In this document: piece by piece, positions 857 to 10,129 of the stretch | How the letters are laid out: each line of letters starts with the position of its first letter | Position numbering within the stretch: the first letter of the stretch is position 1 | DNA from: Myxococcales bacterium | GTDB taxonomy: Bacteria > Myxococcota_A > Polyangia > Nannocystales > Nannocystaceae | Direction: 5' to 3' | NCBI GenBank assembly: GCA_020633295.1 | Contig: JACKDW010000001.1 | Span: forward strand, 1,213,828 to 1,277,827 | DNA: 64,000 nucleotides | Notes under the pieces: model-generated | Databases searched by the model: none | Told to the model about the DNA's origin: nothing | The model's input: the letters and a program-made list of their open reading frames with translations, nothing else | Program-made: the position numbers and the translations under genes

Positions 857-3800
857 GTGCGCGATTCGAGGTACCCTCACACGGTGCGTGATCCGCTGTC
901 CGGCGATGCGCCCGCGCCGCCCGAACTCGATCTCGAGGCGGATCGCCTGCGCGCGCTCATGCGCGCCAGCGTGTTCAAGCAGAAGCATCAACCCGTGACG
1001 ATCGGGCGCTTCGAGATCGTCCGCCTGCTCGGCTCAGGCGCGATGGGGATGGTCTACGAGGCGGTCGATCCCCGCGACGACGAGACGGTCGCGATCAAGG
1101 TCCTGCGCAGCCAGAACCCCCGCGCGCTCGCGCTGTTCAAGAAAGAGTTCCGCGCGCTCTCTCGCCTCAGCCACCCCAACCTCGTCACGCTCTACGAGCT
1201 CGGCCGGGCCGGTCAGCGCTACTTCTTCTCGATGGAGCTCGTGCGCGGCATCCCGCTGCAGCGCTACCTCTGGGGCCTCGAGCTGCCGGACACGAGCGAC
1301 CTCGCGGCCCAGACCCCCGAGGCCTCCCAGAGCCTCACGGCGCTCTCGATCTCGCCGGTCACCGACTTCGCGCGCCTGCGCGACGTCTTCGGGCAGCTGT
1401 GCGCCGGCGTCTCGGCGCTCCACCAGGCCGGCAAGCTGCACCGCGACATCAAGCCCTCCAACGCGCTCGTCACCGGCAGCGGGCGCGTCGTGCTCATGGA
1501 CTTCGGCTTCGTCAGCGAGCAGGGCCAGGGCGCGCTCGAGTCGACCCACGGGAACATGGTCGTAGGGACACCCGCGTTCATGTCGCCCGAGCAGGCCCGC
1601 GCCGCGCCGCCCTCGCCGACGAGCGACTGGTACAGCGTCGGCGCGGCGCTCTACATGGTGCTGACCGGCCAGCCGCCGTTCTTCGGCCTCAACCTCGCCG
1701 ACATGATGCAGGCCAAGCAGACGCGCCTGCCGATCGCGCCGCGCCTGCTCGTCAACGGCATCCCCGAGGACATCGCCGCGCTGTGCGTCGGCCTGCTCGC
1801 GCCGGACCCAAAGAACAGGCCAGACGAGCGCGCGGTGTTCCGCGTGTTCAGCAAGGACGGCGAGCGCGCCCCCGGCATGTCGCTGCGCGCGCGGGCTCGC
1901 GACGCCGCGGCCGCGATGCCGCTCGTCGGCGGCGGCGGGGTCGACCTCCGCGCCGGGCTCGTCGGCCGCGACGCCGAGCTCGCGGCGCTGCGCGAGGCCT
2001 ACGCGCGCGTCGAGGGCACCTCGGGACAGGTTCAACCAACCGCGGTGTTCGTCACGAGCCGCGCCGGCCTGGGCAAGACGACGCTGCTGCGCCGGTTCAC
2101 GAGCGAGCTGCGCGACGCCGGCGAGGCCGTGGTGCTGAAGACGCGCTGCTACGAGCGCGACACCATGCAGCTCAAGGCGCTCGACGGCCTCGTCGACGCG
2201 CTCGCCCGACACCTCAAGCAGCTCCCCGAGCCCGAGCTGCGCGCGCTGCTCTCGGCCGACGTGAACGCGCTCGTCGCCCAGTTCCCCGCGCTGCTGCAGG
2301 TCCGCGCGCTCGCGGGTCGCGAGCCCGCCGCGCTCGACCGACGCGAGCTGCAGCCGCGCGCGCTCGCGGCCCTGCGCGAGATCCTGCAGCGGCTCGGCGA
2401 GCGCGCCCCGCTGGTCGTCTGGGTCGACGATCTGCAGTGGGGTGACGTCGACAGCGTCGCGCTGCTCGTCGAGCTGCTCGACCCGCGCGAGCGCGCGACG
2501 CCGCGCGTGCTCCTGCTCGCCAGCTACCGCAGCGAGGACGCCGCGCGCAGCCCCGCGCTCGAGCCGCTGCAGCGGCTCGCCGAGGACCCCGCGCGCGCGG
2601 CCCACGTCACGCGCCTCGAGCTCACGCCGCTCGACGAGGACGCGTGCATGGCGATCGCCGAGCGCCTGCTCGCCGTGCGGGCGCCCGACGCCGCCGACGA
2701 CACCGCCCAGGCCATCGCCCGCGAGGCCCAGGGCAGCCCGCTGTTCGTGCACGAGCTCGTGCGCTTCGTCGAGCGCGAGGTCGCGGTCGCGCAGGCTGAC
2801 GGCCGGCGCCCGCACGTCTCGCTCGAGGCGCTGCTGCACGTGCGCGTCGCCCAGCTGCCGAGGCGGATGCGGCGGCTGCTCGCGCTCGTCGCGGTCGCCG
2901 GCCGCCCGATCGAGCTCTCGCTCGCGCTCGCGGCCGCCGAGATCCGCGAGGACGCGCGCGCGGTCGTCCGTCGCCTCGACAACGAGAACCTCGTGATCGC
3001 GCGCGAGCGCGACGGCGTCACGATCCTCGACACCCAGGAGCGCGTGCGCGCGGCCGCGGTCGCGCAGCTCGACGGCGTCACGCTGCGCGCCCACCACGAG
3101 CGCCTCGCCGAGATCTACGCGGCCGCCGACGCGCCCGATCACGTCATCCTCGCCGAGCACCTGCGCGCCGCCGGGCAGCTCACGCAGGCGCGCGCGCACA
3201 TCATCGCCGCCGCGCGCCAGGCCGCCGCCGCCGGCGATCACGATCAGGCCGCCGAGCACTATCACTTCGCGATCGAGCTGTCCGCGGACGACCCGGACGA
3301 GACCGAGCGCCTGCGCCTGCAGCTCGCGGACGTGCTCGCCCGCTGCGGCCGCTGGACGCTCGCCGCCGACACCTACGTCGACCTCTCGCGCGGGCAGCCC
3401 GGCGCCGACCCGCGCCTGTACGCGCGCGCGGCCGCGCTCATGCTCGCGCAGGGCATCACCAACATCGGCCGCGTCATGCTGATCACGGGCATGCGCGAGG
3501 CCAACCTGCGCCCGCCCGGCGCGGCTCGTGTCGTCCGCTGGCTGCGCCGCGGCAGCGCCAAGCTGCGCGGCTACGAATTCGAAGCGCGCCTGCCGTCGAC
3601 GCTCGCGCCCGAGGCCGCGGCCCGCGTCGACGTGCTCGAGGCCGGCGCCGTCGGGCTCGCGCCCACCGACCTCGACGCCGCCGAGGATCTCCAGGCTCGT
3701 CACCTGCGGAGCGCGCTCGACCTCGGGGACCCGCGCCGGGTCGCCCGCGCGCTCGCCCTCGAGGCGCTGACCGAGGCGCGTCGCGGCGTCGACGGGCGCG

Positions 3801-5101
3801 CGCGCGTGCGCGCCCTCCTCACCCGCGCCGATGAGCTGCTCGTCGCGGCCGGCGCGTCGGCGGCCGTGGCCGCGTCGCCCTCCGACGCTTCCTCCCACGC
3901 TTCCTCCCACGCTTCCTCCCACGCTTCCTCCGACTCGTCGCTCCGACCTCGAGCTCCGACGCGCACGACGACCTCCCTGTCGTCGACGGACGACGAGGCC
4001 GTCGGCGCGTCGGCGGCGACGCGCGAGGTGACCGCCGCGCGCCTGCGGCTGCGGACGATCGAGACGCTTACGCACGCGCTGCAGGGTGATCTCGACGCGG
4101 CGATCGTGGGCTGCGAGGCGTGCGAGTCGGCGCTGCTCGAGTCGTGCCCCGACGACGCGTGGGGGCTGACCGAGCTGCGCCGCGCGCGGCTCGACTGCCT
4201 GCGCCGCGCCGGGCTGTTCACCGAGCTGCGAGCGCAGCGCGACCGCGTCGCCGCGCTCGCGCAGGCGGTCGAGAGCCGCGAGCTCAAGGCCATGAGCCGG
4301 CTCGCGGATGTCTGGCTCGCGCTCGCGGGCGCGGCCGCCGACGAGGCCGCGCGCTGGCTCGACGAGGCGCGCGCGCACTGGACGATCCGCAGCCCGAGCG
4401 TGCCGCTGGCGGAGGTGCTGATCGCCGAGGTCCACGTCGCGCTCGCGCGCCGCGACGTCGACGCGGCCGCGCGCGCGCTCGCCGACGCCTGGTCGCAGCT
4501 CTCCGGCAGCACGCTGTGGCGCGTGCAGCAGCTCCGCGTCGACGCGCTGTTCGCCCGCGCGCTCTGCAGCGTCACCCGCCACGTGAGTGACATGACCTCT
4601 CAGTCACGTCGCGCGGCCGAGCGCGACCTCGCGGCGCTCGCCCAGGAGGACTACCCCGGCGCGGCCGGCCTCGCCGCGCTGCCCTCCGCCTCGCTGCTGG
4701 TCGCGACGGGCGCGCGCGAGCGGGCGGCGGCGGAGCTCGCCGCGGCGATCACCACGCTCGACAACGCGGGCCTGCGCCTGCACGCGCGCGCGTCGCCCAC
4801 GCGCGCGCGCGCGCGTGCTCGCGAGCGGCGAGCGCGACTGCGTCGTCGGCGTGCGCTCGCTCGGCGTGCGCGCCCCGGTCGAGCTCTCGGAGCGGCTCGT
4901 GCCGCTGTCGCGCGCGCTCGCGGGCTGAACCACGTCACGACGCGCGCGGCTCATCGACGTCGGCGTCGGCGGCGGCGGGCTCCGAGCGCACCGACCGACG
5001 CGCACCGATCGACGCGTCCCCGAGCCCCGACGCGCGTCGCCATCTCGCCTCGCGGTCATCAACCCGATTCACGCGCGAGCGCACGCCGGCGCTGGACGTG
5101 A
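857..5101 (+). CDS. Serine/threonine protein kinase fused to a P-loop NTPase (AAA/STAND-like) and a long helical/TPR-like regulatory region
   Basis: GTG 857, with an alternative ATG at 959. Kinase motifs LGSGAMGMVYEA (Gly loop), AIKVL (Lys), HRDIKPSNALV (catalytic loop), DFG, and GTPAFMSPEQ (activation segment). Walker A at SRAGLGKTTLLRRF. The last ~60 codons in this frame are Arg-rich junk. The plausible C-terminus continues in the +1 frame to TGA 4926-4928 after a (GC)n tract at 4801-4815 (see findings). Confidence 0.85.
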   Translation: MRDSRYPHTVRDPLSGDAPAPPELDLEADRLRALMRASVFKQKHQPVTIGRFEIVRLLGSGAMGMVYEAVDPRDDETVAIKVLRSQNPRALALFKKEFRALSRLSHPNLVTLYELGRAGQRYFFSMELVRGIPLQRYLWGLELPDTSDLAAQTPEASQSLTALSISPVTDFARLRDVFGQLCAGVSALHQAGKLHRDIKPSNALVTGSGRVVLMDFGFVSEQGQGALESTHGNMVVGTPAFMSPEQARAAPPSPTSDWYSVGAALYMVLTGQPPFFGLNLADMMQAKQTRLPIAPRLLVNGIPEDIAALCVGLLAPDPKNRPDERAVFRVFSKDGERAPGMSLRARARDAAAAMPLVGGGGVDLRAGLVGRDAELAALREAYARVEGTSGQVQPTAVFVTSRAGLGKTTLLRRFTSELRDAGEAVVLKTRCYERDTMQLKALDGLVDALARHLKQLPEPELRALLSADVNALVAQFPALLQVRALAGREPAALDRRELQPRALAALREILQRLGERAPLVVWVDDLQWGDVDSVALLVELLDPRERATPRVLLLASYRSEDAARSPALEPLQRLAEDPARAAHVTRLELTPLDEDACMAIAERLLAVRAPDAADDTAQAIAREAQGSPLFVHELVRFVEREVAVAQADGRRPHVSLEALLHVRVAQLPRRMRRLLALVAVAGRPIELSLALAAAEIREDARAVVRRLDNENLVIARERDGVTILDTQERVRAAAVAQLDGVTLRAHHERLAEIYAAADAPDHVILAEHLRAAGQLTQARAHIIAAARQAAAAGDHDQAAEHYHFAIELSADDPDETERLRLQLADVLARCGRWTLAADTYVDLSRGQPGADPRLYARAAALMLAQGITNIGRVMLITGMREANLRPPGAARVVRWLRRGSAKLRGYEFEARLPSTLAPEAAARVDVLEAGAVGLAPTDLDAAEDLQARHLRSALDLGDPRRVARALALEALTEARRGVDGRARVRALLTRADELLVAAGASAAVAASPSDASSHASSHASSHASSDSSLRPRAPTRTTTSLSSTDDEAVGASAATREVTAARLRLRTIETLTHALQGDLDAAIVGCEACESALLESCPDDAWGLTELRRARLDCLRRAGLFTELRAQRDRVAALAQAVESRELKAMSRLADVWLALAGAAADEAARWLDEARAHWTIRSPSVPLAEVLIAEVHVALARRDVDAAARALADAWSQLSGSTLWRVQQLRVDALFARALCSVTRHVSDMTSQSRRAAERDLAALAQEDYPGAAGLAALPSASLLVATGARERAAAELAAAITTLDNAGLRLHARASPTRARARARERRARLRRRRALARRARPGRALGAARAAVARARGLNHVTTRAAHRRRRRRRRAPSAPTDAHRSTRPRAPTRVAISPRGHQPDSRASARRRWT
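3887..3934 (+). repeat. 12-bp tandem repeat (gcttcctcccac) x4, last copy imperfect, encoding (SHAS)n inside the kinase gene
   Basis: Direct reading of 3887-3934. The translation shows SHASSHASSHASS. Confidence 0.8.
4801..4815. repeat. (GC)7-8 dinucleotide tract at the point where the kinase reading frame appears to shift
   Basis: gcgcgcgcgcgcgcg read directly. Frame 2 upstream is protein-like and frame 0 downstream is protein-like (VLASGERDCVVGVRSLGVRAPVELSERLVPLSRALAG, then stop). Confidence 0.7.
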
Positions 5102-6472: not shown

Positions 6473-6602
6473 CCCGAGGCCTACACCCCCTGCCCGCAGC
6501 GGGGCGCCGAAGCTCAGGACGCGCGCGCGCTCGCGCGTGGTTCTACGATCGCCCGACCCGACCGCGTCCGCGCGCGCGCGACGTCACGCGCGCCTGCCCA
6601 AT

Positions 6603-6631
6603 TGAGCACACAAGCAGACGCTGATACCATC
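6603..6631 (+). promoter_or_regulatory. Candidate sigma-70-like promoter (TTGAGC, 17-bp spacer, TACCAT) upstream of repeat-element copy 1 and sthA
   Basis: Hexamers at 6603-6608 and 6626-6631 with a 17-nt spacer, in the 515-bp HU-sthA intergenic region. Pattern match only. Confidence 0.25.
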
Positions 6632-6662
6632 GCCGCGTCCGATGCAGGAGGTGCGCCGGTCC

Positions 6663-6890
6663 AGGTCTAGCTCGGTGCCCTGCACCAGGGCGGCGTTGCG
6701 CCGCCCGGGCGTACCTCTCCGCATTCATCACAAGGAAGGCTATTCCAGAATGTCGCTGTCCCGAGAAGAGCCCGTAGACGGCGACGGGCTGGAACAACCT
6801 CGCCACTCGAAGTTCCGTACGCCGTCTACGGGCTCTTCTCGGGGCGAATTCAGTGAGCCTTCCATGTCCCAGGTCATGTCGTAGACGACC
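6663..6890 (+). repeat. Copy 1 of a conserved non-coding element with a long hairpin. Core 6726-6875; the variable stem arms 6761-6781 and 6822-6842 form a 21-bp perfect helix. Candidate structured RNA or a MITE (miniature inverted-repeat transposable element).
   Basis: About 150 nt near-identical to 9663-9812 apart from the central stem (for example catcacaaggaaggctattccagaatgtcgctgtcc ... ggcgacgggctggaacaacNtcgccactcgaagttccgtacgccgt ... ggcgaattcagtgagccttccatgtcccaggtc). The stem is entirely different in the two copies yet perfectly complementary within each. Weaker similarity extends about 60 nt upstream. Confidence 0.75.
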
Positions 6891-6986
6891 GCGCGCCTCC
6901 GGCATCGGACACCTCTTCACAACCAGCCACGGACCCCACCCAGGCGAGCCCCGACCTCGTCCGTCGTCGCCAGCAGGAGACACGCA

Positions 6987-8622: not shown

Positions 8623-9381
8623 ATGTCCGAGTTCCAACTCGCCACGCGCACCTCGATCACCGCGTACTATTCGCGGAGTCAGCTGTTGATCATCGCCGAG
8701 GGCAAGCTGCCGACGCCGGATTGGGAGATCGACATCAGCCAGGATCACAACCAGGCGGCGGTCCCGACGTTTCGACTCTCACGTCGCCCGCGGCCGACCG
8801 ACACCGGCGACGAGGAGACCCCGTTTCGCTACGGCGAGATCTTCACGATCGGCCGCCCGCCCGATCACATCATCGTCCGCCACGTCGACGGCGACGACCG
8901 CGTCCCGGTCGAGTTCACCAACCAGGAGCTCGTCGACATCGTGCTCAGCCTCAGCCTCGAGGACAGCCAGAGCGACGTCCTCGAGATCCCGATGCTCGAC
9001 GACATGGGCGACGAGCCGTCCTCCTCGGTCTACGACTCCGGCCTCCACCGCGTCGAGGTCAACGCGTCCTCCCTGGGCGGCGGCGGAGACGTCATGGTCG
9101 GCCAGGCCATCCCGGCGATGGGCGGGATCAACCTCGACCCGAGCCAGAGCGGCTCGGGCATGCTCAACGACCTCAGCGTCCGCTACCGCGAGTCGGTCGG
9201 CTACTCGAACAAGCTCTCCTTCGACGAGGCCTTCGCCGACGCGCTCAAGAAGCTCCCCCCGCCCGCGATGAAGTTCCCCGACATGATGGAGACCGTCGAG
9301 GTCGTGCACATCGGCGGGACCTTCGGCGGGATCGCGGGCTTCCACCGCCTCGAGGTCCGCATCCGCGCGTACCCCGACTGA
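8623..9381 (+). CDS. Hypothetical acidic cytoplasmic protein (no recognisable domain)
   Basis: ATG 8623 ([11 protein letters not shown]...). Protein-like composition with slightly lower-GC codon choice than the neighbours (tat, agt, ttg, ttt). No signal peptide. Confidence 0.55.
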
Positions 9382-9597
9382 GCGCGCGACGAGATCTCGC
9401 GCCGCCTCCAGCGCGAGCGGTCGGGCCCGCGACCCGACAAAACATGACTCATAAACCAGGTTTCCGCGCGCGCGCGCCGGGAGAAACTCACCCGCGCGCG
9501 CCGGGAGGCGCGGGAAGCTGCGGGAAGCTGTTGATCCGCGCGCCGGAGGCGTGCTATCCGATCAGCACGCGGACGAACTGCTCACCCGACCAGGAGG

Positions 9598-9825
9598 TAG
9601 GTCTAGCCTGATGCCCTGCATCAAGATCGGCGCTGCGCCGATCCGGCATCTTCCATCGCACACATCACAAGGAAGGCTATTCCAGAATGTCGCTGTCCCT
9701 CATATATGCCTCGTACGGCGACGGGCTGGAACAACGTCGCCACTCGAAGTTCCGTACGCCGTACGAGGCATATATGAGGGGCGAATTCAGTGAGCCTTCC
9801 ATGTCCCAGGTCTTGAAGTAGACAT
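9598..9825 (+). repeat. Copy 2 of the hairpin element. Core 9663-9812; stem arms 9697-9718 and 9759-9780 form a 22-bp perfect helix with a different sequence from copy 1.
   Basis: Direct comparison with 6663-6890. Same orientation. Loop and flanks identical except one c/g difference in the loop. Confidence 0.75.
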
Positions 9826-9855
9826 CTTGGTAGTTGAGCTTTTCCGACGCCGCTT

Positions 9856-9910
9856 GCGGCCAGCGAGCCTTTCCCACCCCCTTGGGGCTTCGCTGGCCGC
9901 ACTTTTTTAA
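9856..9910 (+). terminator. Candidate intrinsic terminator immediately downstream of element copy 2
   Basis: gcggccagcgagcc (9856-9869) pairs with ggcttcgctggccgc (9886-9900) with one bulge and a 16-nt loop, followed by cacttttttaa (T-run 9903-9908). Confidence 0.45.
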
Positions 9911-10129
9911 GCGGCTCAAGCTCTTCCCACGTCCGCCCAGTCCGGCCCCCGGTGGCCCTGGCAACGCCGCGCTCGTAGGCCTCAGCCGCGACCTCGGAGT
10001 GCCCGAGGCGAACGGCGGCGTACAGCGCCGCGTCGAGATCCTGCATCGCGCCGGCGCCGTCGCTCGCCTTCATGCGCGCGCTCCCGCGGCGCAGCGTGCT
10101 CGGCCGACGGTAAGGAACCCGAACCCGAG

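Follow-up and report, generated by a model that had tools for sequence, protein, structure and literature searches.

How can a hairpin exchange the whole sequence of its central stem and still remain perfectly paired? This question is raised by two copies of a non-coding element in a stretch of 64,000 nucleotides (hereafter the window) from a Myxococcales bacterium of the family Nannocystaceae (assembly GCA_020633295.1, contig JACKDW010000001.1, positions 1,213,828 to 1,277,827). We propose that both elements are msr-msd non-coding RNA (ncRNA) genes of a type XIII retron which stand apart from the retron protein genes, and assign a probability of roughly 0.8 to this reading. Homology, structure and covariation support it, as does the physical linkage that connects family members with type XIII operons. 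That the elements are type XIII msr-msd RNA is very probable; that copies distant from a reverse transcriptase (RT) gene are still reverse transcribed is favoured with less assurance.

By the usual definition, which also guides searches for them, retrons consist of an RT gene and an RNA gene directly beside it. The kind of element described here is already known as type XIII msr-msd, and its arrangement was reported once, for Ne160 of Nannocystis exedens. Of interest is the conserved, RT-distal and multi-copy organisation together with a hypervariable stem that is strictly Watson-Crick paired: in one bacterial family, the RNA genes lie far from the RT, are multiplied and have been under strong selection over at least genus-level timescales, with only the middle of the stem of the multicopy single-stranded DNA (msDNA) free to change in RT-distal loci. 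The analysis also revives the 1997 observation of Ne160, which has so far had no genome follow-up.

Two copies of one structured element

An initial annotation had described two copies of a hairpin in the same orientation with fully substituted, perfectly complementary arms. Both copies were confirmed on the + strand: each of three conserved blocks (28, 33 and 33 nt) is present exactly twice in the window, and shuffling left no match to any of the three. The alignment of copy 1 (about 6726-6886) with copy 2 (about 9663-9823) contains no indel. The arms are indeed exact reverse complements of each other in both copies, and the only further match that CGAGAAGAGCCCGTAGACGG (copy 1) or CCTCATATATGCCTCGTACGG (copy 2) has in the window is its exact reverse complement, located 40 nt downstream. 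Folding compared with dinucleotide shuffles gave z = -7.9 for copy 1 and z = -7.4 for copy 2. A reported difference in arm length (21 vs 22 bp) turned out to be an artefact of delimitation, the arms being equally long in both copies and the truly variable part covering about 18-20 nt.

The core of 150 nt that had been delimited is conserved, but it is too small, as each unit comprises about 275 nt (6636-6909 and 9580-9839). Comparison with the orthologous locus of a Polyangia metagenome-assembled genome (MAG; about 87 % nucleotide identity) placed conservation at about 6619-6912 and about 9528-9908, which takes in a long closing stem and, in the case of copy 2, also a terminator.

The statement that the conserved nucleotides fall in different reading frames is factually wrong. 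Since there is no indel between the cores, they are in the same frame in both copies and share an open reading frame (ORF) of 44 codons on the + strand (ATG 6750 to TAG 6884 and ATG 9687 to TAG 9821). A small protein was considered and rejected, because ATG is replaced by ATT in four copies of relatives (L034_a, L034_b, L031_a and L035_a). With the start codon lost, the shared ORF is not conserved, so that the description as non-coding stands on grounds other than those first given. The ORF (MSLS..., 6750-6884 and 9687-9821) is an accident of the conserved RNA sequence.

The units have the layout of retron RNA

In retrons, the 5' end of msr pairs with the msd 3' end, and the priming G usually falls within a conserved TAGC at this stem's inner end (PMC6868368). 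Further hallmarks are two opposing Gs, one to three msr hairpins and a long variable msd stem, and the retrons of myxobacteria belong to type XIII (PMC7736814). This class takes in Mx162, Mx65, Sa163 and Ne144 (Mestre et al., 2020, PMC7736814); the literature places both Ne144 of N. exedens and its RT there.

Each unit of the window is laid out as a1, branching G (in TAGC), msr, msd and a2, and fits every structural hallmark of a retron ncRNA: closure by a1/a2, the TAGC G and a second G facing it, a pair of msr hairpins (5 and 8 bp), and a single msd hairpin of about 50 bp with a variable stem, where the general definition asks for 10-50 bp. These are the features in which it resembles the type XIII ncRNA. 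Retrons of E. coli such as Ec86 (Eco1) follow the same plan, with a1/a2, a TAGC that contains the branching G, and hairpins in both msr and msd. They differ in having a single ncRNA immediately upstream of the RT and co-transcribed with it, and a shorter msd (about 86 nt); there is no detectable sequence similarity between them and the elements of the window, and no Rfam match.

For Retron-Nex1 (Ne160) of N. exedens, the review PMC6868368 relates several msr-msd repeats with no RT within a kilobase (Lampson and Rice, 1997). Compared with that secondhand description, the window is alike in carrying several RT-less msr-msd repeats in a Nannocystis-type genome, and the predicted msDNA size of about 150-160 nt fits the name Ne160, again by description.

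Family members adjoin type XIII retron operons

A scan of metagenomes with the most conserved block, GAGCCTTCCRTRTCCCAGGTC, yielded 60 loci, many of them tandem arrays of two to three copies with a period of 330-360 nt. An RT motif scan of all these loci gave one match, L050. Here, a full-length family member begins about 20 nt after the stop codon of an RT ORF of 432 aa (Pfam RVT_1, 6.9e-21; PADLOC RT_XIII, 6.1e-166), and SWIM_XIII (5.5e-174) and HEAT-ARM_XIII (E = 0) are found upstream of the RT. Using the L050 proteins in tblastn, two more linked loci were recovered, L079 and L081. In both, the RNA gene is positioned 90-200 nt upstream of two consecutive HEAT-ARM_XIII genes, followed by SWIM_XIII in L079; the fetched DNA spans the HEAT-ARM/SWIM part of the operon, and the RT itself lies outside. 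Finally, three RT_XIII loci were fetched via the protein (L100, L101 and L102), and a family member is present 6 kb downstream of the RT_XIII gene in L101.

A type XIII system consists of a clade-10 RT (RT_XIII), a SWIM/winged-helix protein and HEAT/ARM proteins, and such genes are seen beside the family members of L050, L079, L081 and L101 (the RT only in L050 and L101). This linkage indicates that the family is an ncRNA of type XIII retrons. The family shares with type XIII its occurrence in Polyangia/Myxococcota and looks vertically inherited. The initial annotation had taken the lack of a nearby RT as an argument against a retron. This argument fails, as family members adjoin RT_XIII/SWIM_XIII/HEAT-ARM_XIII operons and RT-less msr-msd repeats are documented for Nannocystis (PMC6868368); a missing RT in the neighbourhood does not rule out a retron.

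The organisation differs from that of type XIII in three respects. The RNA genes of the window and of the Nannocystaceae-type loci are not contiguous with an RT (none in 64 kb), they occur as two to four paralogues with unrelated stems, and in the linked loci the RNA gene either precedes the entire operon or follows the RT, instead of lying immediately upstream of the RT. The position of the RNA gene relative to the retron protein genes is thus loose in Polyangia.

Covariation supports a conserved RNA fold

For covariation analysis, the family set comprised 56 distinct full-length homologues from Polyangia genomes and metagenomes (alignment A3). GTCTAGC and, opposite to it, GTAG are invariant in 56/56 sequences, and CUA/UAG is paired in every one of them. 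RNAalifold predicted the two msr hairpins and the long msd hairpin, with double changes at 37 of the 57 predicted pairs. Paired cells amounted to 96.3 %, compared with 77.5 % in shuffles and 35-43 % when the partners were slid; changes on both sides were found in 632 cells (171 in shuffles), and the covariation score was 0.466 (0.107). None of the 500 shuffles reached the observed values. This massive covariation, with 632 double-change cells against 171, substantiates the earlier claim of selection on secondary structure.

Both msr hairpins contribute to this signal. Hairpin 1 (helix 2) has 99.3 % of its cells paired and double changes at four of its five pairs, and hairpin 2 (helix 3) reaches 98.4 % with double changes at three pairs and G-U tolerated. 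The outer helix GGAAGGCT/AGCCTTCC, which had been suggested before, is real (99.8 % of cells paired). In contrast, the proposed ggaac/gttcc mini-helix in the apical segment finds no support: its 5' side varies (GGTGC, GGAGC, GGCGC, GGACC and others), GTTCC hardly does, and there is no covariation.

Because the closing stem varies in length and register, it was tested sequence by sequence against a shuffled 3' flank. The mean duplex energy was -29 kcal/mol compared with -18 kcal/mol for the shuffled flanks, and 53 of the 56 sequences clearly beat their own control. Covariation in this stem is also evident from the alignments. In L034, the closing stem has 16-17 bp and is followed by a T-run.

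The msd hairpin has a conserved base (GGAAGGCT/AGCCTTCC with the adjoining pairs) and a conserved apex, and the middle 18-20 bp differ in nearly every copy. Among the 56 sequences, we counted 49 distinct arms. From copy to copy the arms are 34 % identical, which is near random, compared with 96 % for the flanks, a value partly imposed by the search pattern that was used to fetch the metagenome copies. From a total of 1062 variable-stem cells, 1006 are Watson-Crick pairs (95 %), 6 are G-U (0.6 %), 12 are A-C (1.1 %) and 38 are mismatches of other kinds. In contrast, both ends of the variable stem have fixed G-U pairs, and the msr hairpins contain them too (57, 47 and 13 G-U vs 2, 6 and 1 A-C), which identifies the + strand as the folding RNA strand. 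Variable helices of RNA families normally contain several per cent of G-U pairs. We infer that their near-absence from the variable stem reflects either the need for the complementary DNA strand, the msDNA, to pair as well, or a templated process that keeps the arms identical. The 49 natural stem variants on one conserved scaffold are informative about what type XIII RTs and their effectors recognise and about the extent to which the msd is replaceable. A function of the variable arms as guides that match a target was considered and rejected: no other match was found in the window and none in viral contigs.

Anatomy of the two units

Copy 1 is preceded by a weak promoter-like site (6602-6630, + strand; TTGAGC, a 17-nt spacer and TACCAT), which may act as its promoter. 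A promoter candidate had already been noted here; the -10 hexamer is kept in the orthologous MAG, but the -35 hexamer is not, and the site is below the threshold of the consensus scan. The 5' strand of the closing stem, a1 (6636-6669), ends in the invariant GTCTA (6665-6669). Nucleotides 6636-6660 pair with 6886-6909, and the duplex of a1 with 6882-6909 has -48.0 kcal/mol compared with -22.0 kcal/mol for a shuffled 3' flank; the changes relative to the orthologue keep the pairing, partly by G-U pairs. The candidate branching (priming) G is 6670, within the invariant TAGC. It is followed by msr hairpin 1 (6674-6686; GGTGC / CCT / GCACC) and msr hairpin 2 (6688-6706; GGGCGGCG / TTG / CGCCGCCC).

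The long msd hairpin of copy 1 (6730-6867, about 50 bp) was delimited by the minimum free energy fold and family helices 4-6. Its variable 5' arm CGAGAAGAGCCCGTAGACGG (6762-6781) is the exact reverse complement of the 3' arm (6822-6841), and comparison with the orthologue revealed a compensatory change from A-U to G-C (CGAGAAG/CTTCTCG to CGGGAAG/CTTCCCG). The conserved 3' block (6853-6875) is near-invariant in the 56 sequences, a figure to be read with the caveat that the metagenome copies were fetched with a pattern drawn from the same block. The unit is completed by the opposing G (6881) and a2 (TAGAC at 6882-6886 and onward; together 6881-6909), with GTAG invariant throughout the set.

All features of copy 2 are likewise on the + strand. 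A promoter-like site with a putative function is located at 9531-9559 (TTGATC, a 17-nt spacer and CTATCC). Between window and MAG, its -35 is identical and its -10 near-identical (CTATCC vs TTATCC), and the spacer has diverged. The a1 segment (9580-9605) forms a duplex with 9819-9839 of -20.9 kcal/mol (shuffled: -14.9 kcal/mol), and a change from G-U to G-C in the orthologue keeps the pairing. The candidate branching G (9606) is again part of TAGC, and msr hairpins 1 (9610-9622) and 2 (9625-9643) show compensatory differences to copy 1. The msd hairpin (9667-9804) contains the variable arms at 9698-9718 and 9759-9779, with a compensatory change in the orthologue from ATATATGCC/GGCATATAT to ATATACGCC/GGCGTATAT. 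The opposing G (9818) and a2 extend to 9839.

Downstream of copy 2, an intrinsic-terminator-like hairpin (9855-9901) with a T-run (9903-9908) was detected (-32.3 kcal/mol, z = -4.3), which is identical in the window and the MAG despite diverged flanks. It is not called by a strict scan because its loop exceeds 8 nt. Judged from sequence, the promoter- and terminator-like elements are only suggestive as transcription signals.

Genomic position and evidence for purifying selection

A 19-mer from the core was compared with one genome per species (185,579 species). It returned 23 loci, only two of which are real, and both of these are on one Polyangia MAG contig that is syntenic with the window (about 87 % nucleotide identity). 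At the syntenic loci of six relatives, the element was present in 6/6 with one to three copies per locus. A hypothetical gene invariably has one copy about 100 nt downstream, and the remaining copies are either upstream of HU or in the spacer that separates HU from sthA. In L031 and L034, copies are found upstream of HU, and the spacer between HU and sthA has a length of only 173-262 nt. Repeat numbers vary: the window has two and L034 three, N. pusilla (L037) has a tandem pair with the same 330-360-nt period as the metagenome arrays, and L065 and L071 have three each in an array; no RT was seen in the flanks of these repeats.

These positions bear on the proposals of the initial annotation that the element is a mobile hairpin, such as a miniature inverted-repeat transposable element (MITE), a repetitive extragenic palindrome (REP) recognised by a REP-associated tyrosine transposase (RAYT) or an IS200/IS605 end, or that it is the 5' leader or a riboswitch of sthA. 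A long palindromic hairpin with conserved flanks would suit a mobile element, and copy 1 indeed ends only 78 nt upstream of sthA. Dispersal is missing, however: copies number two to four per locus and are syntenic, as are the two true 19-mer matches, and no transposase is nearby, the neighbours being housekeeping genes. As the position relative to sthA is not conserved, with the RNA upstream of HU or downstream of the hypothetical gene in relatives, the leader hypothesis is removed as well; moreover, copy 2 is followed by a terminator and not by a gene, and no Rfam riboswitch matches. We regard this whole group of explanations as having next to no probability. Searches of plasmid and phage collections by blastn gave no match, and an 18-mer scan of viral contigs resulted only in chance matches in low-GC phages.

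Another explanation for RT-less copies is that they are dead, retrotransposed or duplicated derivatives of msDNA in the course of decay. According to PMC6868368, which cites this work, Lampson and co-workers proposed retrotransposition for the msDNA-like repeats of N. exedens, and fragments consisting of the 3' block only do occur in metagenomes (L052/L097 and L066/L080/L093). The units described here are of a different nature, since they contain msr and a1/a2, parts that msDNA lacks, and they are syntenic across genera. Their conserved blocks are about 96 % identical while the arms are randomised, and compensatory changes are found even between close orthologues. This combination of conserved blocks and compensated arms indicates purifying selection and not decay, which makes decaying copies very unlikely. 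In this respect, our interpretation also differs from the reading published for Ne160, as far as the citing review conveys it: retrotransposition there, long-term purifying selection on complete a1-msr-msd-a2 units here.

No nearby reverse transcriptase, and a possible RNA-only function

Several results weigh against a retron RNA in the window. The 64 kb contain no gene for RT_XIII, SWIM_XIII or HEAT-ARM_XIII according to tblastn and, for the RT, a YxDD motif scan, so that the contiguous RT that homologue L050 possesses is lacking. RT_XIII, SWIM_XIII and HEAT-ARM_XIII are equally absent around some 20 loci, flanks included, that have the RNA beside the same hypothetical gene. Rfam 15 gave 0 matches at the gathering threshold in the window and none at the related loci. 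A strict consensus scan for transcription signals called nothing in the region, neither the two promoter-like sites, which are weak, nor the terminator. The likeness to Mx162 and Sa163 is based on their described features. Finally, within 10 kb of the RT_XIII locus of Minicystis rosea (L100) there is no family member, and at the RT_XIII locus L102 a different RNA is in use, so that this RNA family does not universally go with RT_XIII.

Two further searches were negative. A permissive Rfam search (E up to 10) of the window returned only sub-threshold hairpin noise, and no RT of the window's own genome was among the best 120 of 7112 RT_XIII-like proteins. Motif scan and tblastn were used for the window because a PADLOC scan of all its proteins was swamped by Ser/Thr kinase models.

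The lack of an RT within tens of kilobases could point to a domesticated small RNA that descends from retron ncRNA, is independent of RT and has no DNA copy, and that serves in protein binding or regulation tied to the hypothetical gene of about 250 aa. The copies have their own promoter-like and terminator-like signals, and one copy is always found about 100 nt downstream of this gene, although the protein is only about 55 % identical. However, RT-distal copies keep every invariant of the RT-adjacent copies while their arms are randomised, and these invariants include nucleotides needed only for priming, namely the G of TAGC, the opposing G and the block beside the cDNA start. Furthermore, the variable stem avoids G-U pairs (0.6 %), which would be tolerable under an RNA-only constraint, and Nannocystis is known to make msDNA (Ne144, Ne160). 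Taken together, a domesticated RNA is improbable.

A proposed route to msDNA

The steps that follow are inferred, from transcription and the position of the branch to reverse transcription in trans and whatever the msDNA may do. Each RNA gene would be transcribed on the + strand, and a1 at the 5' end and a2 at the 3' end would pair into the long closing stem, which ends at the invariant CUA/UAG flanked by the opposing Gs. By analogy with characterised retrons, an RT of type XIII whose gene is located elsewhere in the genome would attach to both msr hairpins and be primed by the 2'-OH of the TAGC G (6670 or 9606). The msd would then be copied leftwards from the nucleotide 5' of the opposing G, which sets the predicted start of cDNA synthesis at 6880 or 9817. 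The expected product is a branched msDNA of about 150-160 nt, folding into the complementary long hairpin; branch point, cDNA start and msDNA length are modelled on Ec86-type retrons. In this hairpin, the middle 18-20 bp would be free in sequence provided that Watson-Crick pairing holds, which would explain how the stem can be fully substituted in the paralogues and yet be perfectly paired.

More tentatively, and as a possibility that we rate below an even chance, Nannocystaceae may carry a natural retron array, in which a single type XIII RT located elsewhere services two to four separately transcribed msr-msd genes. A cell with such an array would hold a repertoire of msDNAs that differ only in a duplex of 18-20 bp, and the variable duplexes might be alternative baits for sequence-specific phage factors. 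In this reading, selection acting on the DNA hairpin might preserve the perfect complementarity of the arms, or the chromosomal copy might be corrected with msDNA as the template.

Neighbouring genes and related sequences

The hypothetical protein P0001 (about 252 aa, window 8623-9381, + strand) has no Pfam domain and no obvious features of a nucleic-acid enzyme. In every Nannocystaceae-type locus, one to three retron RNA genes come directly after its gene. Homologues occur in Nannocystaceae and reach Nannocystis at about 55 % identity, and shorter ones of about 190 aa are present in Actinomycetota. Further upstream, the window encodes a Ser/Thr kinase fused to an AAA_16/STAND-type ATPase (857-5101, + strand; 1414 aa), ahead of the genes for an extracytoplasmic function (ECF) sigma factor and HU. 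Two window proteins strongly match the PADLOC kinase models PD-T4-6, mad6 and MkoA, probably due to generic kinase similarity.

A stem can be orthologous without being at the same site. The stem of copy 1 (6762-6781), which is located in the spacer between HU and sthA in the window, is the orthologue of the L031 and L034 stem downstream of the hypothetical gene (GAGAAGAGCCCGTAGAC vs GAGAAGTACCCGTAGAC; L034:6817-7099 and L031:6863-7162). This orthology at differing sites implies that stems and chromosomal positions have been exchanged between genomes.

In the Polyangia contig L102, four tandem repeats of about 170 nt are situated between the SWIM_XIII and RT_XIII genes (9331-10001). They encode a different, shorter retron-like RNA with an a1/a2 stem of 30 bp (GACCCCTGCCGGCTTGCCCGGCAGGTGAAG with CTTCACCTGCCGGGCAAGCCGGCAGGGGTC) and look like a natural ncRNA array inside a retron operon.

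Incomplete family members were observed as well. At L041:2604-2651 (= L043, L045), the 5' two-thirds of a copy are replaced, and the remainder adjoins a transposase gene of the IS91 family (Y2_Tnp / Zn_Tnp_IS91); its 3' flank matches the L070/L048 subtype, and the copy looks disrupted. Fragments with only the 3' part of msd are found at L052:1471-1533 (= L097), at L066:9190-9226 (= L080, L093) and in L076 (= L082, L094). The one in L052 consists of the 3' arm and GGCGATTTCAGTGAGCCTTCCATGTCCCAGGTC and adjoins two DNA methylase genes. These fragments occur in unrelated contexts, and their ends coincide with CCCAGGTC or fall just after it, where cDNA synthesis is predicted to start. Possibly they are pieces of msDNA that became integrated, as Lampson et al. 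(2002) proposed for N. exedens.

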